Of a DNA stretch of 64,000 nt, positions 4,849 to 40,568 are shown piece by piece. The stretch is from an uncultured Candidatus Binatia bacterium. GTDB lineage: Bacteria; Desulfobacterota; Binatia; Bin18. The stretch covers positions 2,961,546-3,025,545 of the forward strand of contig OZ244620.1 of NCBI GenBank assembly GCA_965218395.1, written 5' to 3'. Made by a program: the position numbers and the translations under genes. Within the stretch, counting starts at the first letter, position 1, and each line of letters opens with the position of its first letter. The notes under the pieces are model-generated. The model made no database searches. It worked only from the letters and a program-made list of their open reading frames with translations, and was not told where the DNA came from.

Positions 4849-4879
4849 GGGAGGGAGAAGTAATCTTCTTCCTCCTCCC
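4849..4879. repeat. G/A-rich hairpin GGGAGGGAGAAG-TAAT-CTTCTTCCTCCTCCC downstream of clpB
   Basis: 12-bp stem with two G-U pairs, 44 nt after the clpB stop. It resembles the GGGAGAGGG palindrome family. No U-tract follows, so it may be a REP-like element or a weak terminator. Confidence 0.4.
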
Positions 4880-6479: not shown

Positions 6480-6701
6480 TCACTCACGGGGCTTGAGCAT
6501 CCGAATACGCCGCACCGGTGGATGGCCGGGGGTGTCATCCACAAAGGTGAGGTGCTCCGCCTCACAGGCGGGACAGATAATCAGCGTCCCGTATTTTTCG
6601 TGCTCAATCATGGGCGGCCAGTTGCCGCCCGCCGGCTCGCCATAGTTGCTCATCTGGTAGAGTTCTTCGGCACACATCAGACAGTACTGGGATTTTGCCA
6701 T
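6480..6701 (-). CDS. Small zinc-ribbon protein (two CxxC pairs), hypothetical
   Basis: MAKSQYCLMCAEE...ICPACEAEH, 73 aa. Start chosen at the ATG with a GGAG RBS, since the upstream extension of the ORF is low-complexity. Confidence 0.45.
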   Translation of the reverse strand: MAKSQYCLMCAEELYQMSNYGEPAGGNWPPMIEHEKYGTLIICPACEAEHLTFVDDTPGHPPVRRIRMLKPRE

Positions 6702-6727
6702 AGGCTGACTCCTTCTCCTTTTGCTCC

Positions 6728-6746
6728 CTCTCCCTCTGGGAGAGGC
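6728..6746. repeat. Palindromic repeat CCTCTCCC-TCT-GGGAGAGG (GGGAGAGGG family)
   Basis: Perfect 8-bp inverted repeat in the divergent intergenic region. Confidence 0.5.
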
Positions 6747-6956
6747 TTGGGATAAGGCTGTCTGCGGAACAGCCATGTCCGGGCGACCTCCACACTCCTG
6801 CACGGCACTGGATTCCGGCTTTCGCCGGAATGACGTTCTACGATGGGTTGTATCCTAGGTTTCAGTCGTCTGCCCTTGTCCTTCGTCTTGACGCTCTGAG
6901 GGGGACGGGGTAGGTCTTCTTGTGGCCGGCAACCACCGCCGCAAAAGGGAGACGAC

Positions 6957-7421
6957 ATGTTTGAGTATACTATGCAGCACCTCTTTTCCTATACCGCCAG
7001 CCTGGAGATGCCGCCCGAAACAATCGGGCCGGTGCCCGGCGGCGTCCGGGTCAATGTCTACATCACCGGCGGAGAAGTTGCAGGTCCCAAACTGCACGGC
7101 AAGCTGCGCCCGGTTGGCGCGGATTGGCTGACTATCCGACCCGATGGGGTGGCCTATCTCGATGTGCGGGCGACGGTTGAGGCGAACGACGGGGCATTGA
7201 TCTATGTGACCTATAACGGAGTGTTGGATTTAGGCGCGGACGGCTATCAGAAATTTCTGGCCGGCGAGCTGCCGCCCAGCGGGACGCCGATTCGGACGAA
7301 CCCCTGGTGTCAGACCGCTCACCCCGACTATATGTGGATGAATCGTTGTCTATGTGTCGGGGTCGGAGAAGCCTATCTGGAACGGGGTGAGGTCCGCTAC
7401 GACATATATGCCGTACGCTAG
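6957..7421 (+). CDS. DUF3237 family protein (beta-barrel), hypothetical
   Basis: Carries the YITGGEVAGPKLHGKL..GADW block characteristic of DUF3237. Confidence 0.65.
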   Translation: MFEYTMQHLFSYTASLEMPPETIGPVPGGVRVNVYITGGEVAGPKLHGKLRPVGADWLTIRPDGVAYLDVRATVEANDGALIYVTYNGVLDLGADGYQKFLAGELPPSGTPIRTNPWCQTAHPDYMWMNRCLCVGVGEAYLERGEVRYDIYAVR

Positions 7422-7444: not shown

Positions 7445-7996
7445 ATGAGCAAACCGAGCTGGAAACTCACGTATTGGTGTGCAGCCCTCAGCGCTGGTCT
7501 GCTGCTGTGGAGCCGTCCCGTCGGTGCCGCGGTTGAGGTCGGGAGCCCCGCGCCCGTGTTTTGTTTGCCCGCCCAGGACGGCGAGGCGGTCTGTCTCTCA
7601 GACTTCACGGGCAAACGAAATGTCCTGCTGCTTTTTTATATTTTGGACTTTACCCCAGGCTGAACTCTTCAGTTGGCAAACGGGCAGGAAGCCCGGCAGG
7701 AGCAGCAACTCGACGCGGTGGTCCTGGGAATCAGTACCAATCACCCCGCCTCCCAGCGTATATTCCGCGAACAACTGGCCCTCAGCTACCCGTTGTTGAG
7801 TGCGTTTGACGCTCCCGAGGTGGTTGAAGACTATGTGGGCTGGCTGGACCGGGAAAAGCGGCTCAGTCAGCGGGCCTATGTGCTGATTGATACGGACGGC
7901 ATCGTGCGTTTCGTGCGCGTCATGCAGAACCCCGCAGAGGTCCTGGCGGTGAGCGAGCTGGAGGCCGAGCTGGCCAAGCTCACCGCGGCCCAGTAA
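7445..7996 (+). CDS. PrxQ/Bcp-type peroxiredoxin with an in-frame TGA at the peroxidatic Cys position (candidate selenocysteine peroxiredoxin), with N-terminal signal peptide
   Basis: ORFs 7445-7663 and 7673-7996 are in the same frame, separated only by a TGA at 7661-7663. Reading through gives FYILDFTPG-[TGA]-TLQ, against the Bcp motif FYPKAMTPG-C-TVQ. The downstream blocks VLGISTN..PLLSAFD and LIDTDG are colinear with E. coli Bcp. The signal peptide is MSKPSWKLTYWCAALSAGLLLWSRPVGAA. Confidence 0.6.
7672..7709 (+). promoter_or_regulatory. Candidate bacterial SECIS hairpin downstream of the TGA
   Basis: GTTGGC-AAA-CGGGC-AGGAA-GCCCG-GC-AGGAGCAG-CAAC. The inner 5-bp stem has a G-containing apical loop ~23 nt after the TGA, and an outer GTTG/CAAC stem begins 9 nt after the TGA. 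Confidence 0.35.
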
Positions 7997-8075
7997 CATG
8001 CGTCTGCTTGCGCTTTGAGAACCAGGGATGAATAATGGGCGGCCAAGAGCGAGGACTGCAAAGGGAGGCCCGATA

Positions 8076-14763: not shown

Positions 14764-16338
14764 CTACCGCGGTACCCAATCCGGCAGGCTGTCCAGCTCG
14801 ATCCCGAACGCCGGTACCCCAATCACATATAAAAGCCCGGTCAGAATAAGGATACTCAGGATATTGAGGCCGAAACCGGCCCAGAACATTTGGGGCAGAG
14901 TAACGGCGCCACTGGCAAAAATAATGGCGTTCGGCGCGGTGGCGGTTGGCAGCATAAAGGCAAAGGAGGCGGCGAAGGTGGCGGGGATCATGAGCAACAG
15001 CGGGTCAATCTCCAGGCCGGTCGCGGTGGCGGCGAGCACGGGCATGACCAGGGTGGTCGTGGCCGTATTGCTGGTGAACTCGGTCAGCCAGACCATGAGG
15101 GCGCACACGGAGAAGATGGCGACAAAAGGGGAGACATCCCGCAGAAAGGATAATTGTGAGCCGGCCCAGTTCGCCAGACCGGAATGCCCCACGCCCTCGG
15201 CCAGGGCGAGGCTGCCGCCCAGCAGCACCAGAATCCCCCACGGAATCTTGTTGGTGTCCGCCCAGGTCAGCAGGAACTCGCCCTTTTTTCGTCCGGACGG
15301 GACAAGAAACAGCAGGATGGCGGCCAATATGGCGACGGTCGAATCCTGGATGTGGTGCGGGTGGGGAAACAGACTGGCCCAGCCGGGTAGAGACAGCGCA
15401 CCGAGATCAATATCCTTCCTGAAAATCCAGAGCAGCACAGTGGTCAGCGATAACAGCAACACCCGCCGTTCTCCACCGCGTATGCGGCCGAGGTCCTGGA
15501 GCTGTTGGGCTAAAAAGGCTTGGTTATCCTGCCAGCCGGCGCTTGGCACCCGGAAATAGATATAGACCAGATAAAACCAGACGCTAACCACCATGAAGGC
15601 CGCGGTCGGCACACCAAACAGCATCCATTGGAAGAAACCGATATCCGGCGCGTTCGGAAAGAGCTTGGTAAACGCCCCCATGAACACGACGTTGGGCGGA
15701 GTGCCGACAGGGGTACTCACCCCGCCGATCGAGGCGCTATAGGCCAGGCCAAGCATCAGCGCGATGCCAAAGCCCTGGGTGGTGTCATAGCCTTGGCTGG
15801 CGGCATGATGCAGAACCGCCAGGGCGATAGGCAGCATGATAATGGTTGAGGCGGTATTGGACACCCACATGGAGAGCAGGGCGGTCGTACACAGAAAGCC
15901 GAGAATGAGCAACTGGGGCGAGCGGCCTATCTTGGACAGGATCAGCAAGGCGACCCGGCGGTGGAGCTGCCACTTTTCCATGGCGATGGCCAGAAAAAAG
16001 GCGCCAAAGAATAAGAAGACGATGTGATCGGCATAGGCGGTCGAGACCTCATGCGCGCTCAAGATATCGAGCAGCGGAAACAAGACGAGCGGGACGAGAC
16101 CCGTAACGGTAATATGGGTGGCCTCGGTAACCCACCACGTCCCCATCAGGACGACCACCCCCGCCGTGTGCCAGGCGATCAGACTCATATCAGCCGGTGG
16201 GCCGGTCAGGAGAAACAGCAGGAGCACTCCTATGCCGGTAAAGAGGCCAATCGCTTTACGTCGGCTATAGGCCGGCGGCTCGGACGGTGGCGCCTCTGAT
16301 GCGGGCGCGTCTGTTGCCGTTGTCTGAGTCATATGCAA
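14764..16338 (-). CDS. DASS/SLC13-family anion:Na+ symporter
   Basis: 524 aa polytopic membrane protein with DASS-like repeated hairpin regions. It ends 7 nt before the dioxygenase start, so it is in the same operon. The annotated start is a TTG; the ATG two codons in is also possible. Confidence 0.8.
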   Translation of the reverse strand: MHMTQTTATDAPASEAPPSEPPAYSRRKAIGLFTGIGVLLLFLLTGPPADMSLIAWHTAGVVVLMGTWWVTEATHITVTGLVPLVLFPLLDILSAHEVSTAYADHIVFLFFGAFFLAIAMEKWQLHRRVALLILSKIGRSPQLLILGFLCTTALLSMWVSNTASTIIMLPIALAVLHHAASQGYDTTQGFGIALMLGLAYSASIGGVSTPVGTPPNVVFMGAFTKLFPNAPDIGFFQWMLFGVPTAAFMVVSVWFYLVYIYFRVPSAGWQDNQAFLAQQLQDLGRIRGGERRVLLLSLTTVLLWIFRKDIDLGALSLPGWASLFPHPHHIQDSTVAILAAILLFLVPSGRKKGEFLLTWADTNKIPWGILVLLGGSLALAEGVGHSGLANWAGSQLSFLRDVSPFVAIFSVCALMVWLTEFTSNTATTTLVMPVLAATATGLEIDPLLLMIPATFAASFAFMLPTATAPNAIIFASGAVTLPQMFWAGFGLNILSILILTGLLYVIGVPAFGIELDSLPDWVPR

Positions 16339-16358
16339 AGCTCTGCGCAGGAGGACGT

Positions 16359-16754
16359 ATGAAAATTACCCGTTTCGTAGCAACCCCGACTGACGGGTCG
16401 CAGTTCGAGGAGATTGATATCCCGATCACGAACGAGCGACAAGATGCCGAAGGCCACACCCTGCTCTTATCCAACACCTATACCTCGCCGGGCGTATGTT
16501 TTGTCGATCTGCCCGCAGGGCTGAACCAGGACTGGCACCAGGCGCCAACGCGCCAGGTCGTTGTCGTCCTGTCCGGGACGCTGGAGGTCACTACCACGGA
16601 TAATCAGGTCCGGCAGTGGAGCAGCGGCGAAGCGTTTATCGCCGCCGATGTCACCGGCCAGGGCCACAAAACGCGCACGCTCGGGGGGCCGGCGCGGGTG
16701 ATGTTTGCGCCGCTGTCCGAGAACCTTTCCATGGAGAGCTGGTCGGAGGGGTAG
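16359..16754 (+). CDS. Cupin-domain protein
   Basis: MKITRFVATPTDG... with a GCAGGAGGAC RBS. Cupin-like beta-rich sequence. It is divergent from the transporter operon. Confidence 0.6.
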   Translation: MKITRFVATPTDGSQFEEIDIPITNERQDAEGHTLLLSNTYTSPGVCFVDLPAGLNQDWHQAPTRQVVVVLSGTLEVTTTDNQVRQWSSGEAFIAADVTGQGHKTRTLGGPARVMFAPLSENLSMESWSEG

Positions 16755-16828
16755 GTCGAAAGGGCGGAGTGCTTCCCCACCGCATGAACGTGTGCTGCCC
16801 ATGACGTCGCACGGCAGAGGAAGCTGCT

Positions 16829-16850
16829 CCCTCTCCCTGGGGGGAGAGGG
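16829..16850. repeat. Palindromic repeat CCCTCTCCC-TGGG-GGGAGAGGG
   Basis: Perfect 9-bp inverted repeat just downstream of the cupin gene. Confidence 0.5.
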
Positions 16851-16906
16851 CTGGGGTGAGGGGGCTTCGGGTCGGGCGTGTCTTTTGCATCAGACCCTTG
16901 GAACCC

Positions 16907-17368
16907 GTGACCATCATCCACACCTCTGAAAGCCGGCTGATCCCCTGCGCCAGAGCCCGCGTGTACGAGGCTAGCCTCGCCTTTGAAGACTATCCGTTGT
17001 GGTGGCCCCGAAAGTTTCACCCCCGGTTCCAATCCTCTCAACTGCCGGCCACGGACCGGCAACGGGTCGGCGACCGCCTCGCCTTTACCCCCGTACCCGG
17101 CATATGGACAGGCTGGGAAATGACCGCCGTTACCCCCGTGGAGCAGATTCGGGTCGCCTACTTTCAGGGCTTCCACACCGGCTGGGGGGTCTGGAGATTC
17201 GCCCCGTAACAGGAACACACCCTGGTCTCCTTTGAGATGCGGATCGTGCCCAAGAACCTGCTCTTCGGCCTGGTGTACCGACTGGCCAGGGTCCCCCGCA
17301 GGCATGCCGCCCATATGCAGGAGATATTCACCGGTCTGGAAGGCTATCTTCAGTGTTCGGTTCCTTGA
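16907..17368 (+). pseudogene. SRPBCC (polyketide cyclase/START-like) gene interrupted by an in-frame TAA
   Basis: The same frame continues across a TAA at 17207-17209 (...GWGVWRFAP*QEHTLVSFEMRIVPKN...). Both halves look like a single SRPBCC domain. Probable GTG start at 16907 (VTIIHTSES...). Confidence 0.45.
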
Positions 17369-17418
17369 GCCGAGCAGGAGCCTGGGGTAAGACCCCTGCA
17401 GGACTGTTGGAACGACGG

Positions 17419-17736
17419 TTACGCGGCTCCCTGCCGGATGGCAATAGCCTCGCGCAGGCCGTCCAGCAGTCCTTCCAGATGGGCCATGCGCTCGCGCAGT
17501 TCGGCGATTTGCTGCTCCAGGGCGGAGAACCGCTCGCTGAACTCCTGGCGCTGGGCGGCGATTTCCCGGCGGAGTTCCGCCAGTTCGGCACTGAAGTCCC
17601 GACGCTGGGCGGCCAGTTCCCGGCGATGCTCCGCCAGTTCGACGCGGATGGCCCGTTGCCCGCTCAGTATCAAGCCGGCCAGGGCTGCCCCGACCGCCAC
17701 GACGGCTATCAGGACGCTGATCAATCCAACGCTCAT
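17419..17736 (-). CDS. Small membrane-anchored coiled-coil protein
   Basis: N-terminal TM segment (LISVLIAVVAVGAALAGLIL) followed by two tandem ~18-aa charged repeats (ELAEHRRELAAQRRDFSA / ELAELRREIAAQRQEFSE). Confidence 0.45.
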   Translation of the reverse strand: MSVGLISVLIAVVAVGAALAGLILSGQRAIRVELAEHRRELAAQRRDFSAELAELRREIAAQRQEFSERFSALEQQIAELRERMAHLEGLLDGLREAIAIRQGAA

Positions 17737-17834
17737 GGCGGTTCACCATACCCCACCAACGAGAAGGAGGGCAAGCAGCGGCTTTGAGGTTGAAACAGGA
17801 ATCCTGCACTCCACAGAAAATGTCGAGGCAGGAG

Positions 17835-17866
17835 TTGACGCTTCCTGCAAATTGTATATACAATTT
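17835..17866 (+). promoter_or_regulatory. Candidate brnTA promoter (TTGACG-N18-TACAAT) overlapping an 18-bp perfect palindrome AAATTGTATATACAATTT
   Basis: The perfect palindrome at 17849-17866 overlaps the -10 region, ~27 nt upstream of the brnT ATG. This is a typical autoregulatory operator arrangement for an RHH antitoxin. Confidence 0.45.
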
Positions 17867-17892
17867 TAATAGGCCGACTCGGCGCGATCAAC

Positions 17893-18150
17893 ATGTACGA
17901 GTGGGATGGGGAGAAGCGTCAAGCCAATCTTGCCAAGCATGGCGTTGACTTTAGCGCGCTGGAGTTTTTTGAGCGGGAGACGGCCGTGGAGGCCGCGGAT
18001 GATCGGCACGACGAACCACGCTGGGTCGCTATCGGGTTCATCCGGCTCCAGCTTCATGTAGTCGTGTACACTGTCCGTAACCGGGCCGTTCGGGTCATCA
18101 GCCTCCGCAAAGCAACGCCGCAGGAGCGCAAGCGCTATGCCAAAACTTAA
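17893..18150 (+). CDS. brnT: BrnT-family toxin (DUF497, type II TA ribonuclease)
   Basis: MYEWDGEKRQANLAKHGVDF... matches the BrnT N-terminus. 85 aa. Confidence 0.75.
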   Translation: MYEWDGEKRQANLAKHGVDFSALEFFERETAVEAADDRHDEPRWVAIGFIRLQLHVVVYTVRNRAVRVISLRKATPQERKRYAKT

Positions 18151-18454
18151 GCCACAAACAACGACCCCGACGCTGGACGAGGAGGCGGCAATCCGCGCGG
18201 GCATTGCCTCCGACCCGGATACCTTTGAACTCGACGACGAGTGGTTCGCAAAAGCCCGCCCGGTGAGCGATGCACACCCTCGGATCGTTGAACGCGACAG
18301 GCGCCGTAGGGGCCGACAGCAGGCACCGACCAAGGAGCATATCTCTATTCGGTTGGACGCCGACCTGGCCGCTTACTTTCGTAGCAGCGGACCGGGCTGG
18401 CAGACACGCCTGAACGACACGCTGCGGCAGGCGGTTTTTGGTCGGAGAGAGTGA
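18137..18454 (+). CDS. brnA: BrnA-family antitoxin
   Basis: Overlaps brnT by 14 nt. The C-terminal block ISIRLDADLAAYFRSSGPGWQTRLNDTLRQAV is typical of BrnA. Confidence 0.7.
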   Translation: MPKLKPQTTTPTLDEEAAIRAGIASDPDTFELDDEWFAKARPVSDAHPRIVERDRRRRGRQQAPTKEHISIRLDADLAAYFRSSGPGWQTRLNDTLRQAVFGRRE

Positions 18455-18594
18455 CTGCGCGTCGGCTCGCACGTATCCCCCCCGACCTCCTTCGACTTCG
18501 CTCTGCTCAGGGTAGATCCCTCACCTCCGTTCGTGCTGAGCGTAGCCCCAGAGGGGCGAAGTCGCAGTACGCTCAGGCCAGGCCCTCACCCCGG

Positions 18595-18615
18595 CCCTCT
18601 CCCAGAGGGAGAGGG
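18595..18615. repeat. Palindromic repeat CCCTCTCCC-AGA-GGGAGAGGG, plus a half-copy GAGGGAGAGGGAGG at ~18627-18640
   Basis: Perfect 9-bp inverted repeat between the convergent brnA and GST genes. Confidence 0.55.
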
Positions 18616-18659
18616 GGAGAATGATAGACAGAGGGAGAGGGAGGAAAATGACTGAACGG

Positions 18660-19289
18660 TTATGCCTTGGCGCTCGGTCGTGAGGAGACGTCCGCGTGCC
18701 AGCGTTTGGTGTTGGTGTTGGCCTCGGGAATGCCCATCTTGGCGAAACCGGCAAAATCGACCACACACAGCGCGGTGATATCGGCAACGGTGTAGCGCTC
18801 TCCGGCAACATAGTTGCTCTGGCTGAGCCGTTGTTCCAGTCGTTCATAGAAGCGCTCAACGCCGGCCTTCCCCCGCGCGGCCAGGTCGGGAATGGCCTGG
18901 ACATTCTCCAGACCGGGCAAGCCCCGGTTCTTAAAGGCGTCAAACGAGTTGCGAAACATCTCGCCCGTGGGATTGAGACCGTCGAATTCCATATGGCGTT
19001 GCCACGACTCGATCTGGGCCTTCTCCAAGGCGTCCCGGCCCATGAGGTTGGGCTCCGGCTGCGTCTCTTCAATATAGCGACAAATCGCGATGGTCTCGTC
19101 GATGCGGTTCCCGTCGTCGAGTTCAAGCGTGGGCAGCAGTCCGCGCGGATTCACCGCCAGATATTCCGGCTTGAGATTTTCTCCTTCGATAATGCTGACC
19201 TCGGTCTTCGGAATATCGACCCCTTTTTCTGCCAGAAAGACACGCACCCGACGTGGGTTGGGGGCCATTTGGCAATCGTACAGTTTCAT
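18660..19289 (-). CDS. Glutathione S-transferase
   Basis: MKLYDCQMAPNPRRVRVFLAEKG... GST N- and C-domains. ATG with an AAGGAGAA RBS, internal to ORF 18660-19577. Confidence 0.85.
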   Translation of the reverse strand: MKLYDCQMAPNPRRVRVFLAEKGVDIPKTEVSIIEGENLKPEYLAVNPRGLLPTLELDDGNRIDETIAICRYIEETQPEPNLMGRDALEKAQIESWQRHMEFDGLNPTGEMFRNSFDAFKNRGLPGLENVQAIPDLAARGKAGVERFYERLEQRLSQSNYVAGERYTVADITALCVVDFAGFAKMGIPEANTNTKRWHADVSSRPSAKA

Positions 19290-19467
19290 ACTGTTCTCCT
19301 TTCTCTTCTCTGGCTTTGCTCCGGTGTGAAAACAAGACAGAACAATAGCCCTCCCAAGCGAGGATGCAAGCCCGGTCGGGCCGGTCGCGACACTCGGCGG
19401 TCCTTTAGACCGGCGCGCTGACGGGCTATGCTGGGGGCGGATCATAGATATTGCAAAGGGGAAGCGT

Positions 19468-25368: not shown

Positions 25369-25441
25369 GGCAAGGTCTCAAGCGTATGCGGGTCGCAGTC
25401 CGCTTCCCGCTCCCTCTGAGCGGGAGCCTGGGAAGGGGGTT

Positions 25442-27311: not shown

Positions 27312-27340
27312 TGGGGTTCACCCTCAAGAGAAACCCTCAC

Positions 27341-27359
27341 CCTCTTCCTCAGGGAGAGG
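27341..27359. repeat. Palindromic repeat CCTCTTCC-TCA-GGGAGAGG (GGGAGAGGG family, one G-U pair)
   Basis: Inverted repeat between the membrane protein gene and the DUF35 gene. Confidence 0.45.
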
Positions 27360-27391
27360 ACCAGGGTCGGAGCAACTGTCTTGGTAGAAAA

Positions 27392-33793: not shown

Positions 33794-33898
33794 ACACTCA
33801 CGCTGTGTGAGAATGACGCCCGATGAGACGCAAGGCCAACCCGGGCGAATTGCTCCCCTGAGTTGCTGAGAACGGGGAGAGGGAAGTTGGAGAGAAGC

Positions 33899-40433: not shown

Positions 40434-40568
40434 AGCTTCCCCCTCTGATGCCTGAGTGCCTTTCTTATCCGAGGCGGCGGGAGGGGGCAATCTGAATGGG
40501 AAGCCATCTCCTGCTCAGGCCGAGCGGGAGAGGCTCGGATGCCGGCGGAGAAAGGCTAGACTCCGACC

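Follow-up and report, generated by a model that had tools for sequence, protein, structure and literature searches.

The stretch of Candidatus Binatia DNA analysed here (64,000 nt, hereafter the window) carries four copies of a small intergenic repeat that, judging by sequence, location and copy number, all of which fit, is an already known element described as BoxC, PIT, TMECO type B and HPG2. We are moderately inclined to believe that these BoxC-type repeats act at the DNA level as structure-driven rearrangement hot spots and give rise to no product.

The repeat unit and its copies

Exact matches to the pattern CCTCTCCC-N2-6-GGGAGAGG lie at 6727-6745, 16830-16849 and 18596-18614, with 0 expected from 100 shuffles, and a pattern search of the window recovered a fourth copy with one mismatch at 27340-27360. 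The hairpin family proposed in the original prediction is therefore real. The G arm GGGAGAGG by itself was found 15 times against 3.2 expected, while single GGGNGAGGG blocks, once the four copies are subtracted, fall to 6 against 5.3 expected and represent background. The original prediction took the repeat for a palindrome only; a third block, GGGTGAGGG, lies 2-3 bases past the G arm and also belongs to the unit. The whole three-block unit reads CCCTCTCCC, N3-4, GGGAGAGGG, CYG, GGGTGAGGG and is 33-34 nt long; its blocks are referred to below as C, G1 and G2 (the third block). Two of the copies (B and C) are complete and two (A and D) are decayed (Table 1).

Table 1. Coordinates of the repeat copies, their parts and adjoining features in the window.
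Feature	Position	Strand	Description
Copy A	6726-6757	+	Decayed: CCCTCTCCC-TCT-GGGAGAGGc-TT-GGGaTaAGG; third block GGGATAAGG
Copy B	16829-16862	+	Complete: CCCTCTCCC-TGGG-GGGAGAGGG-CTG-GGGTGAGGG
Copy B, C block	16829-16837	+	CCCTCTCCC
Copy B, first loop	16838-16841	+	TGGG
Copy B, G1	16842-16850	+	GGGAGAGGG
Copy B, second loop	16851-16853	+	CTG
Copy B, G2	16854-16862	+	GGGTGAGGG
BrnT/BrnA toxin-antitoxin cassette with 128-nt structured tail	17787-18582	+	BrnT and BrnA identified by Pfam; cassette lacking in relatives
Copy C	18583-18615	-	Complete: CCCTCTCCC-TCT-GGGAGAGGG-CCG-GGGTGAGGG
26-nt extra segment	18616-18641	-	Ends in a second CCCTCTCCCTCTG; half-copy GGGAGAGGG at 18633-18641 (+)
Copy D	27334-27360	-	Collapsed: tCCTCTCCC-TGA-GGaAGAGGG-TGAGGG; G1 and G2 fused

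None of the four copies overlaps our ORF set, which covers ~89% of the window (P ~1.3e-4), and public gene calls likewise put all four in intergenic DNA, in agreement with what had been claimed. The further claim was that most of the repeats sit at gene 3' ends or between convergent genes. Three of the four do lie downstream of a gene end: copies B and D lie between genes in tandem and copy C between convergent genes. The exception is copy A, found between the divergent genes 6480-6703 (-) and DUF3237 6957-7421 (+), where the start codon at 6703 lies ~23 nt downstream of it. A cupin-like gene (16359-16754, +) precedes copy B, and an SRPBCC gene starting with GTG at 16907 (+) follows it. Copy C is flanked by BrnA (+, ends 18454) and a glutathione S-transferase gene (GST; -, ends 18660), while the neighbours of copy D are a membrane-protein gene (starts 27311, -) and an OB-fold/DUF35 gene (ends 27392, -).

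The half-copy reported beside copy C is genuine: 18633-18641 is an arm of a 13-nt direct repeat, CCCTCTCCCTCTG (minus strand, 18629-18641 and 18603-18615), at a distance of 26 nt from the C block of that copy. Spurious translations of the form ...PLPEGEG... do exist as well. In this respect, the original prediction was right to see the hairpins, dispersed between genes, as one small repeat family that yields spurious ORFs. The four looser relatives assigned to it (4849-4879, ~25395-25430, 33860-33880 and 40480-40500) fail to match the pattern even when each block may carry 2 substitutions and, by inspection, are different hairpins or purine-rich ribosome-binding regions. GC-rich intergenic hairpins that do not belong to the family were seen at 25395-25431, 4849-4879 and 40521-40535: one of these three is built on a 12-bp stem interrupted by a 2-nt bulge (CTTCCCGCTCCC...GGGAGC-CT-GGGAAG), another is a purine/pyrimidine hairpin located after an 873-aa gene, and another has a CCGAGC/GCTCGG stem with the loop GGGAGAG.

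Identity with published elements

Holder et al. (2015, Nucleic Acids Research, PMC4666352) described 23 copies of the element in E. coli K-12 (e.g. CCCTCTCCCTGTGGGAGAGGGCCGGGGTGAGGGC) and defined the motif as CCCTCNCCC-N3-6-GGGNGAGGG-N3-GGGNGAGGG. The same paper equates the TMECO motif with the element first named BoxC and then PIT, and cites the BoxC work of Hoyne and Maher from 2000-2002. Copies B and C match the published expression, while copies A and D are decayed derivatives with intact forms in relatives. When copies B and C were aligned with the E. coli K-12 copy located between hrpB and mrcB (164.5 kb), the stems proved identical and the loops alone differed. Overall, the E. coli BoxC/PIT/TMECO type B elements and the window copies share the blocks, their spacing, the type of the second loop (CCG/CTG) and an intergenic, multi-copy and dispersed occurrence (four copies in 64 kb here, none in ORFs), together with small deletions that keep the hairpin. 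Locally higher variability, which goes with the E. coli copies (PMC4666352), was found at all four copies in the window. The two sets differ in host, an uncultured Candidatus Binatia bacterium here and proteobacterial genomes in the BoxC census. No type A (TTA loop) partner and no inverted A+B pairs of BoxC were seen in the window.

Two further descriptions concern the same sequence. The G-rich half, GGGAGAGGGCCGGGGTGAGGG, is identical to the HPG2 G-quadruplex/hairpin motif of Kaplan et al. (2016, Nucleic Acids Research, PMC5100583); HPG2 is the same object under another structural interpretation. In the genome of Enterobacter sp. 638, 100 copies of CCCTCTCCCXX(X)GGGAGAGGG were reported (Taghavi et al. 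2010, PMC2869309). These represent the same palindrome, often duplicated at gene 3' ends; however, the palindrome alone was described, with the third block unnoted.

The original prediction had assigned the repeats to the REP/BIME type, mobilised by a RAYT transposase. The likeness is obvious, the copies being short, dispersed, GC-rich intergenic palindromes often situated downstream of genes. Nevertheless, their consensus is different, their architecture is three-block, and neither a conserved GTAG head nor a BIME-type mosaic was found in the sequence flanking the window copies or in that flanking 134 copies from elsewhere. A phmmer search with E. coli RayT over the six-frame ORFs of the window (E up to 10) returned no RAYT-like ORF, E. 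coli rayT itself has no adjoining BoxC, and the same search over the ORFs of the 119 motif loci among the matches listed returned a single hit, a Y1 transposase in L057 (loci from other genomes are numbered with the prefix L), where the repeats around the gene are different ones. The REP/BIME-RAYT reading is thus largely refuted, and we regard it as extremely unlikely, the sequence being that of BoxC/PIT/TMECO as published, which forms a family separate from REP.

As for L057 itself, this locus of a Verrucomicrobiales MAG contains (~700-1900) a Y1 RAYT-like transposase gene between the inverted repeats GTAGCGCAGATTTTCAATCTGC... and ...GCAGAGTTGCACTCTGCGCTAC, and resembles a typical REP-RAYT unit; its BoxC copies are 2.6 kb off and unrelated. 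Clustering of the ORFs of the 119 listed motif loci revealed no transposase family recurring near the motif. The superfamilies that do recur there are housekeeping ones, namely ABC transporters, sigma-54 activators, histidine kinases, SDR, GcvT and MFS. A search of the whole window with Rfam gave only tRNA-Leu at the gathering score, and nothing meaningful appeared around the copies at E up to 1.

Variation of the copies among relatives

Relatives of the window were gathered by exact-protein look-ups and comprise strains 98.3-99.5% identical to it and others at ~89%. Proteins identical to those of the window are encoded on contigs of ~5.0 Mb, circular or nearly complete, that were assembled from long-read metagenomes; the host DNA has ~60% G+C. 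Change among the relatives was observed at all four copies and took the form of indels, mutation clusters, gain or loss of the copy and insertion of an adjoining cassette.

Copy B, 34 nt long, holds 2 of the ~6 distinct indel events found in a 12.4-kb comparison of six strains. Two of these strains (L125 and L127) share a 14-nt deletion between CTGGGG direct repeats, which takes out the loop and G1 and leaves a C block that can still pair with G2, while in L126 the copy has one additional G. The 89% identical relative L128 has no copy B and carries a different 60-nt spacer instead. Within the species, no substitutions were found in copies B or C.

Species-level relatives have kept copy C in its orthologous position, altered in the loops only, and the copy is invariant in six strains ~98-99.5% identical to the window. 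Two Logan short-read contigs stop within it, as expected of a multi-copy repeat. The 26-nt segment next to it occurs in the window and in L247, L248, L250 and L252 but not in L128 or L249; such a patchy presence among relatives indicates that duplication or deletion has recurred between the direct repeats. In L250, three clustered substitutions produce a perfect 12-bp palindrome, CCCTAGCCCTCT-GGG-AGAGGGCTAGGG, against a background of 18 mismatches in 1084 nt. By its pattern, this cluster is a template-switch signature at a quasipalindrome. Template switching at quasipalindromes is an established mutational mechanism, and its hot spots offer a close parallel, as the L250 substitutions likewise perfect an imperfect inverted repeat; still, they represent a mutational process acting on the element and not a family to which it belongs. 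In L246 and L251, element C is gone along with its neighbours.

The right junction of the BrnTA cassette abuts copy C, exactly at the outer edge of its G2 block. The cassette consists of the BrnT/BrnA genes (17893-18454) and a tail (18455-18582) bearing its own inverted repeats; it is present in the species-level group of the window and absent from L128 and L247-L252, where its site measures only 16-20 nt. Homology with L128 reaches window position 17786 and resumes at the copy C element. The 128-nt tail resembles peptide-like repeats of other genomes. As a dispersed repeat it was rejected, for it has no second copy in the window or in the 119 motif loci and is part of the BrnTA insertion. A poly-C tract in this tail (18474-18480) differs by 1-2 nt among strains, which could reflect true slippage or a long-read homopolymer error.

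The two decayed copies have better preserved counterparts. Copy A keeps an 8-bp hairpin and has a degraded third block. At this site the consensus is intact in strain L222 (GGGAGAGGGTTGGGGTGAGGG); 4 differences between the window and L222 fall within 14 nt of copy A, compared with 36 mismatches in 2865 nt overall. The more distant relatives L230-L234 are devoid of copy A. At the site of copy D, the relatives L235-L244 have a three-block element, GGAAGAGGG-CTA-GGATGCGGG, and a 6-nt deletion in the window and its strains joins G1 to G2.

Several other features were noted in the neighbourhood of the copies. The SRPBCC (Polyketide_cyc2) ORF next to copy B (16907-17209, +) stops at 17209, while in most related strains it continues to the equivalent of 17368 and its product has 153-170 aa; the L124 call is shortened too. 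Since no indel separates the window from the strains here, the window ORF probably carries a nonsense substitution. A public gene caller starts a long form of the same gene at GTG 16856, within the third block of copy B. Further on, a 105-aa coiled-coil membrane-protein gene (17419-17736, -), for which no Pfam match was found, contains a tandem 54-nt repeat, 81% identical, at 17537-17644. The spacer past the DUF1329 gene (20794 region) has a 10-nt indel between the window and four strains, and a 1-nt insertion in L124 (20735) alters the length of the DUF1329 product (447 vs 437 aa). Finally, an AhpC/TSA-type peroxiredoxin gene (7445-7999, +) is interrupted by an in-frame TGA (7661-7663) at the exact position of the peroxidatic cysteine (FYILDFTPG-TGA-TLQ); in every strain, the public gene calls divide it into two ORFs, of 72 aa and 107 aa. 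This TGA is likely a selenocysteine codon, making the gene a candidate selenoprotein gene.

Fold, covariation and proposed mechanism

Additional copies residing in the motif loci, 71 in number and unselected by the search, were used to look at pairing: C and G1 form Watson-Crick pairs at ~97% of positions, while the loops are variable. The third block follows a rule of its own. In five distinct asymmetric variants it mirrors G1 at 9/9 positions, T being allowed for A (C / G1 / third block: CTCTCTCCC / GGGAGAGAG / GAGAGAGGG; CCTTCTCCC / GGGAGAAGG / GGATGAGGG; CCCTCCCCC / GGGGGAGGG / GGGTGGGGG; CTCTCCCCC / GGGGGAGAG / GAGTGGGGG; CCCCCTTCC / GGAAGGGGG / GGGGGATGG); this small sample of five comes from loci that had been selected for an exact match to the consensus. 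In copy D, the third block obeys a direct rule and not the mirror rule. The mirror rule is that of a purine-motif intrastrand triplex and favours a DNA hairpin or triplex, so that the covariation in the five variants would lend indirect support to a single-strand intrastrand triplex. In published experiments, single-stranded BoxC formed a triplex in vitro, while duplex DNA gave no triplex signal and no DMS footprint was seen in vivo (PMC4666352).

An alternative would place the function in RNA, with the 9-bp GC stem blocking 3' exonucleases at transcript 3' ends or aiding termination, in the way that REP stem-loops serve some mRNAs. The location of copies B, C and D downstream of gene ends speaks for it, as do the motifs facing gene 3' ends more often than 5' ends (124 vs 85, in 119 loci among the matches listed), the stability of the predicted folds (-15 to -28 kcal/mol) and the termination role presumed for the palindromes in the Enterobacter sp. 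638 paper (PMC2869309). However, those folding energies are unexceptional when compared with shuffles (z -0.5 to -2.4), copy A lies in a divergent promoter region, and the conserved third block with its mirror covariation is left unexplained. No T-run follows the stem, and a terminator scan of 16200-19400 flags other sites and none of the copies, so they are not intrinsic (Rho-independent) terminators, a role that the original prediction had listed as possible for such elements. Earlier reporter work on E. coli copies, as cited by Holder et al., likewise found no promoter or terminator activity (PMC4666352). The orientation of the motif relative to flanking ORFs is even, 62 vs 62 at 3' ends and 42 vs 43 at 5' ends, counts that depend on crude ORF calls, 66 of 211 motifs falling within long, probably spurious, ORFs; such evenness argues against a strand-specific RNA role. 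Taken together, we find the RNA-level hairpin unlikely.

In the HPG2 model, the four G-tracts of G1 and G2 would form a G-quadruplex that competes with the hairpin, and this switch would tune the neighbouring gene. Circular dichroism evidence exists for the E. coli HPG2 sequence (PMC5100583), and copies B and C, only these two, match the pattern of four G3+ tracts separated by N1-7. Natural variants point elsewhere: G-to-A changes in the G-tracts of L007, L036, L115 and L084 break the quadruplex and keep both the hairpin and the mirror rule, and the decayed copies A and D retain the hairpin and lose G-tracts. In addition, the distance and orientation of the elements to genes are not fixed. These variants fit a hairpin or triplex better than a quadruplex and argue against selection for the predicted quadruplex, whose regulatory switch we consider very improbable.

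We return to the DNA-level, structure-prone reading favoured at the outset, which draws on the mirror covariation, the even orientation, the indels between direct repeats and the template-switch cluster. The following scenario might be imagined. When the G-rich strand becomes single-stranded during replication or transcription, the C block and G1 would form a 9-bp hairpin, and G2 would fold back onto G1 to make up the third strand of an intrastrand triplex of the purine-motif type. This fold and the short repeats, direct and inverted, that the unit contains may then cause polymerase stalling, slippage and template switching. As an outcome, each element would be a local hot spot for small deletions and duplications, mutation clusters, loss or gain of the copy and insertions nearby. 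Several of the indels observed in the copies could also have arisen by plain direct-repeat or homopolymer slippage without a triplex. Also counting against this reading are the negative duplex and in vivo results of PMC4666352, the direct rule obeyed by copy D, the invariance of copy C among the six strains and the lack of substitutions in B and C within the species. The elements themselves probably persist as non-autonomous repeats, selfish or nearly neutral.

Distribution of the motif

The exact motif CCCTCTCCC-N3-4-GGGAGAGGGCYGGGGTGAGGG was found in at least 119 stretches of a genome collection, with several matches on single-contig chromosomes. The names of the records cover at least 12 phyla, a few MAG names among them being possible binning errors. 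They include Pseudomonas, several Enterobacteriaceae, Alpha- and Betaproteobacteria; Verrucomicrobiota, Planctomycetota, Chloroflexota and Acidobacteriota; Geobacter, Geomonas, Myxococcota, Nitrospirales and Methylomirabilis; Omnitrophota, Armatimonadota, Vampirovibrionales and Gastranaerophilales; Ignavibacteria and Binatia, the latter represented by the Candidatus Binatia MAG OZ243979.1 (L097). Such a range is wider than that of the published census, which covered 262 proteobacterial genomes (PMC4666352). The flanks of the motif are unrelated between lineages and conserved inside each. BLAST of the window against the 119 listed motif loci gave no long matches, so that none of them represents the source region. 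The exact motif was also found in 82 stretches of predicted viral contigs (IMG/VR, L138-L217), which may be phage DNA or host flanks. According to the 2015 paper, the motif is not associated with phages, plasmids or transposons (PMC4666352).

In Pseudomonas, the BoxC core is found inside a longer conserved unit (...TTTCAGGTCGATGTA...AGACACCTCGGTCGGCC-core), with examples in L001 (421-756), L005 (2784-2927), L033, L038, L045, L091 and L099. The unit forms tandem arrays with a period of ~151 nt in L001 and ~111 nt in L005.

The same core recurring across phyla could be explained if the element were a non-autonomous mobile module, moved by an enzyme acting in trans or carried with horizontally transferred DNA. 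The breadth of the exact 33-34-nt motif, extending to single-contig chromosomes and viral contigs, is consistent with this, and so are the presence or absence of copies A and B between related species and the embedding of the Pseudomonas core in longer, lineage-specific repeats. On the other hand, terminal inverted repeats outside the unit and a target-site duplication are both lacking, and no transposase family recurs by the motif among the matches listed. No clean empty sites were found for copies A and B: where a copy is missing, the spacer also differs over 50-150 nt, and a MITE was rejected on the same grounds. Part of the taxonomic breadth may itself come from binning errors in MAG names. 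We hold a mobile module to be rather improbable.

It is also tempting to suppose that the 33-nt core represents a pan-bacterial module selected for its triplex, with a role in vivo and a horizontal spread, possibly by phage, over at least 12 phyla. The three-way mirror covariation hints at such selection for an intrastrand triplex. We treat this possibility as doubtful. If true, the role might be, for example, that of a programmed replication-pause or recombination hot spot attracting cassettes like BrnTA.

Implications

At a practical level, the elements interrupt short-read assemblies and seed spurious ORFs and false N-terminal extensions, as in the SRPBCC call that begins in copy B. They also mark spots of strain-to-strain change in spacers and neighbouring cassettes. 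The window contributes to a known element by way of a new host lineage, of natural alleles (deletions, duplications and a template-switch cluster) in which its reported instability can be seen, and of a wider phyletic range of the exact motif. The alleles and the wider range leave the identity of the element unchanged; nevertheless, natural alleles from long-read metagenomes of Binatia, combined with conservation across many phyla, could make structure-driven instability testable.
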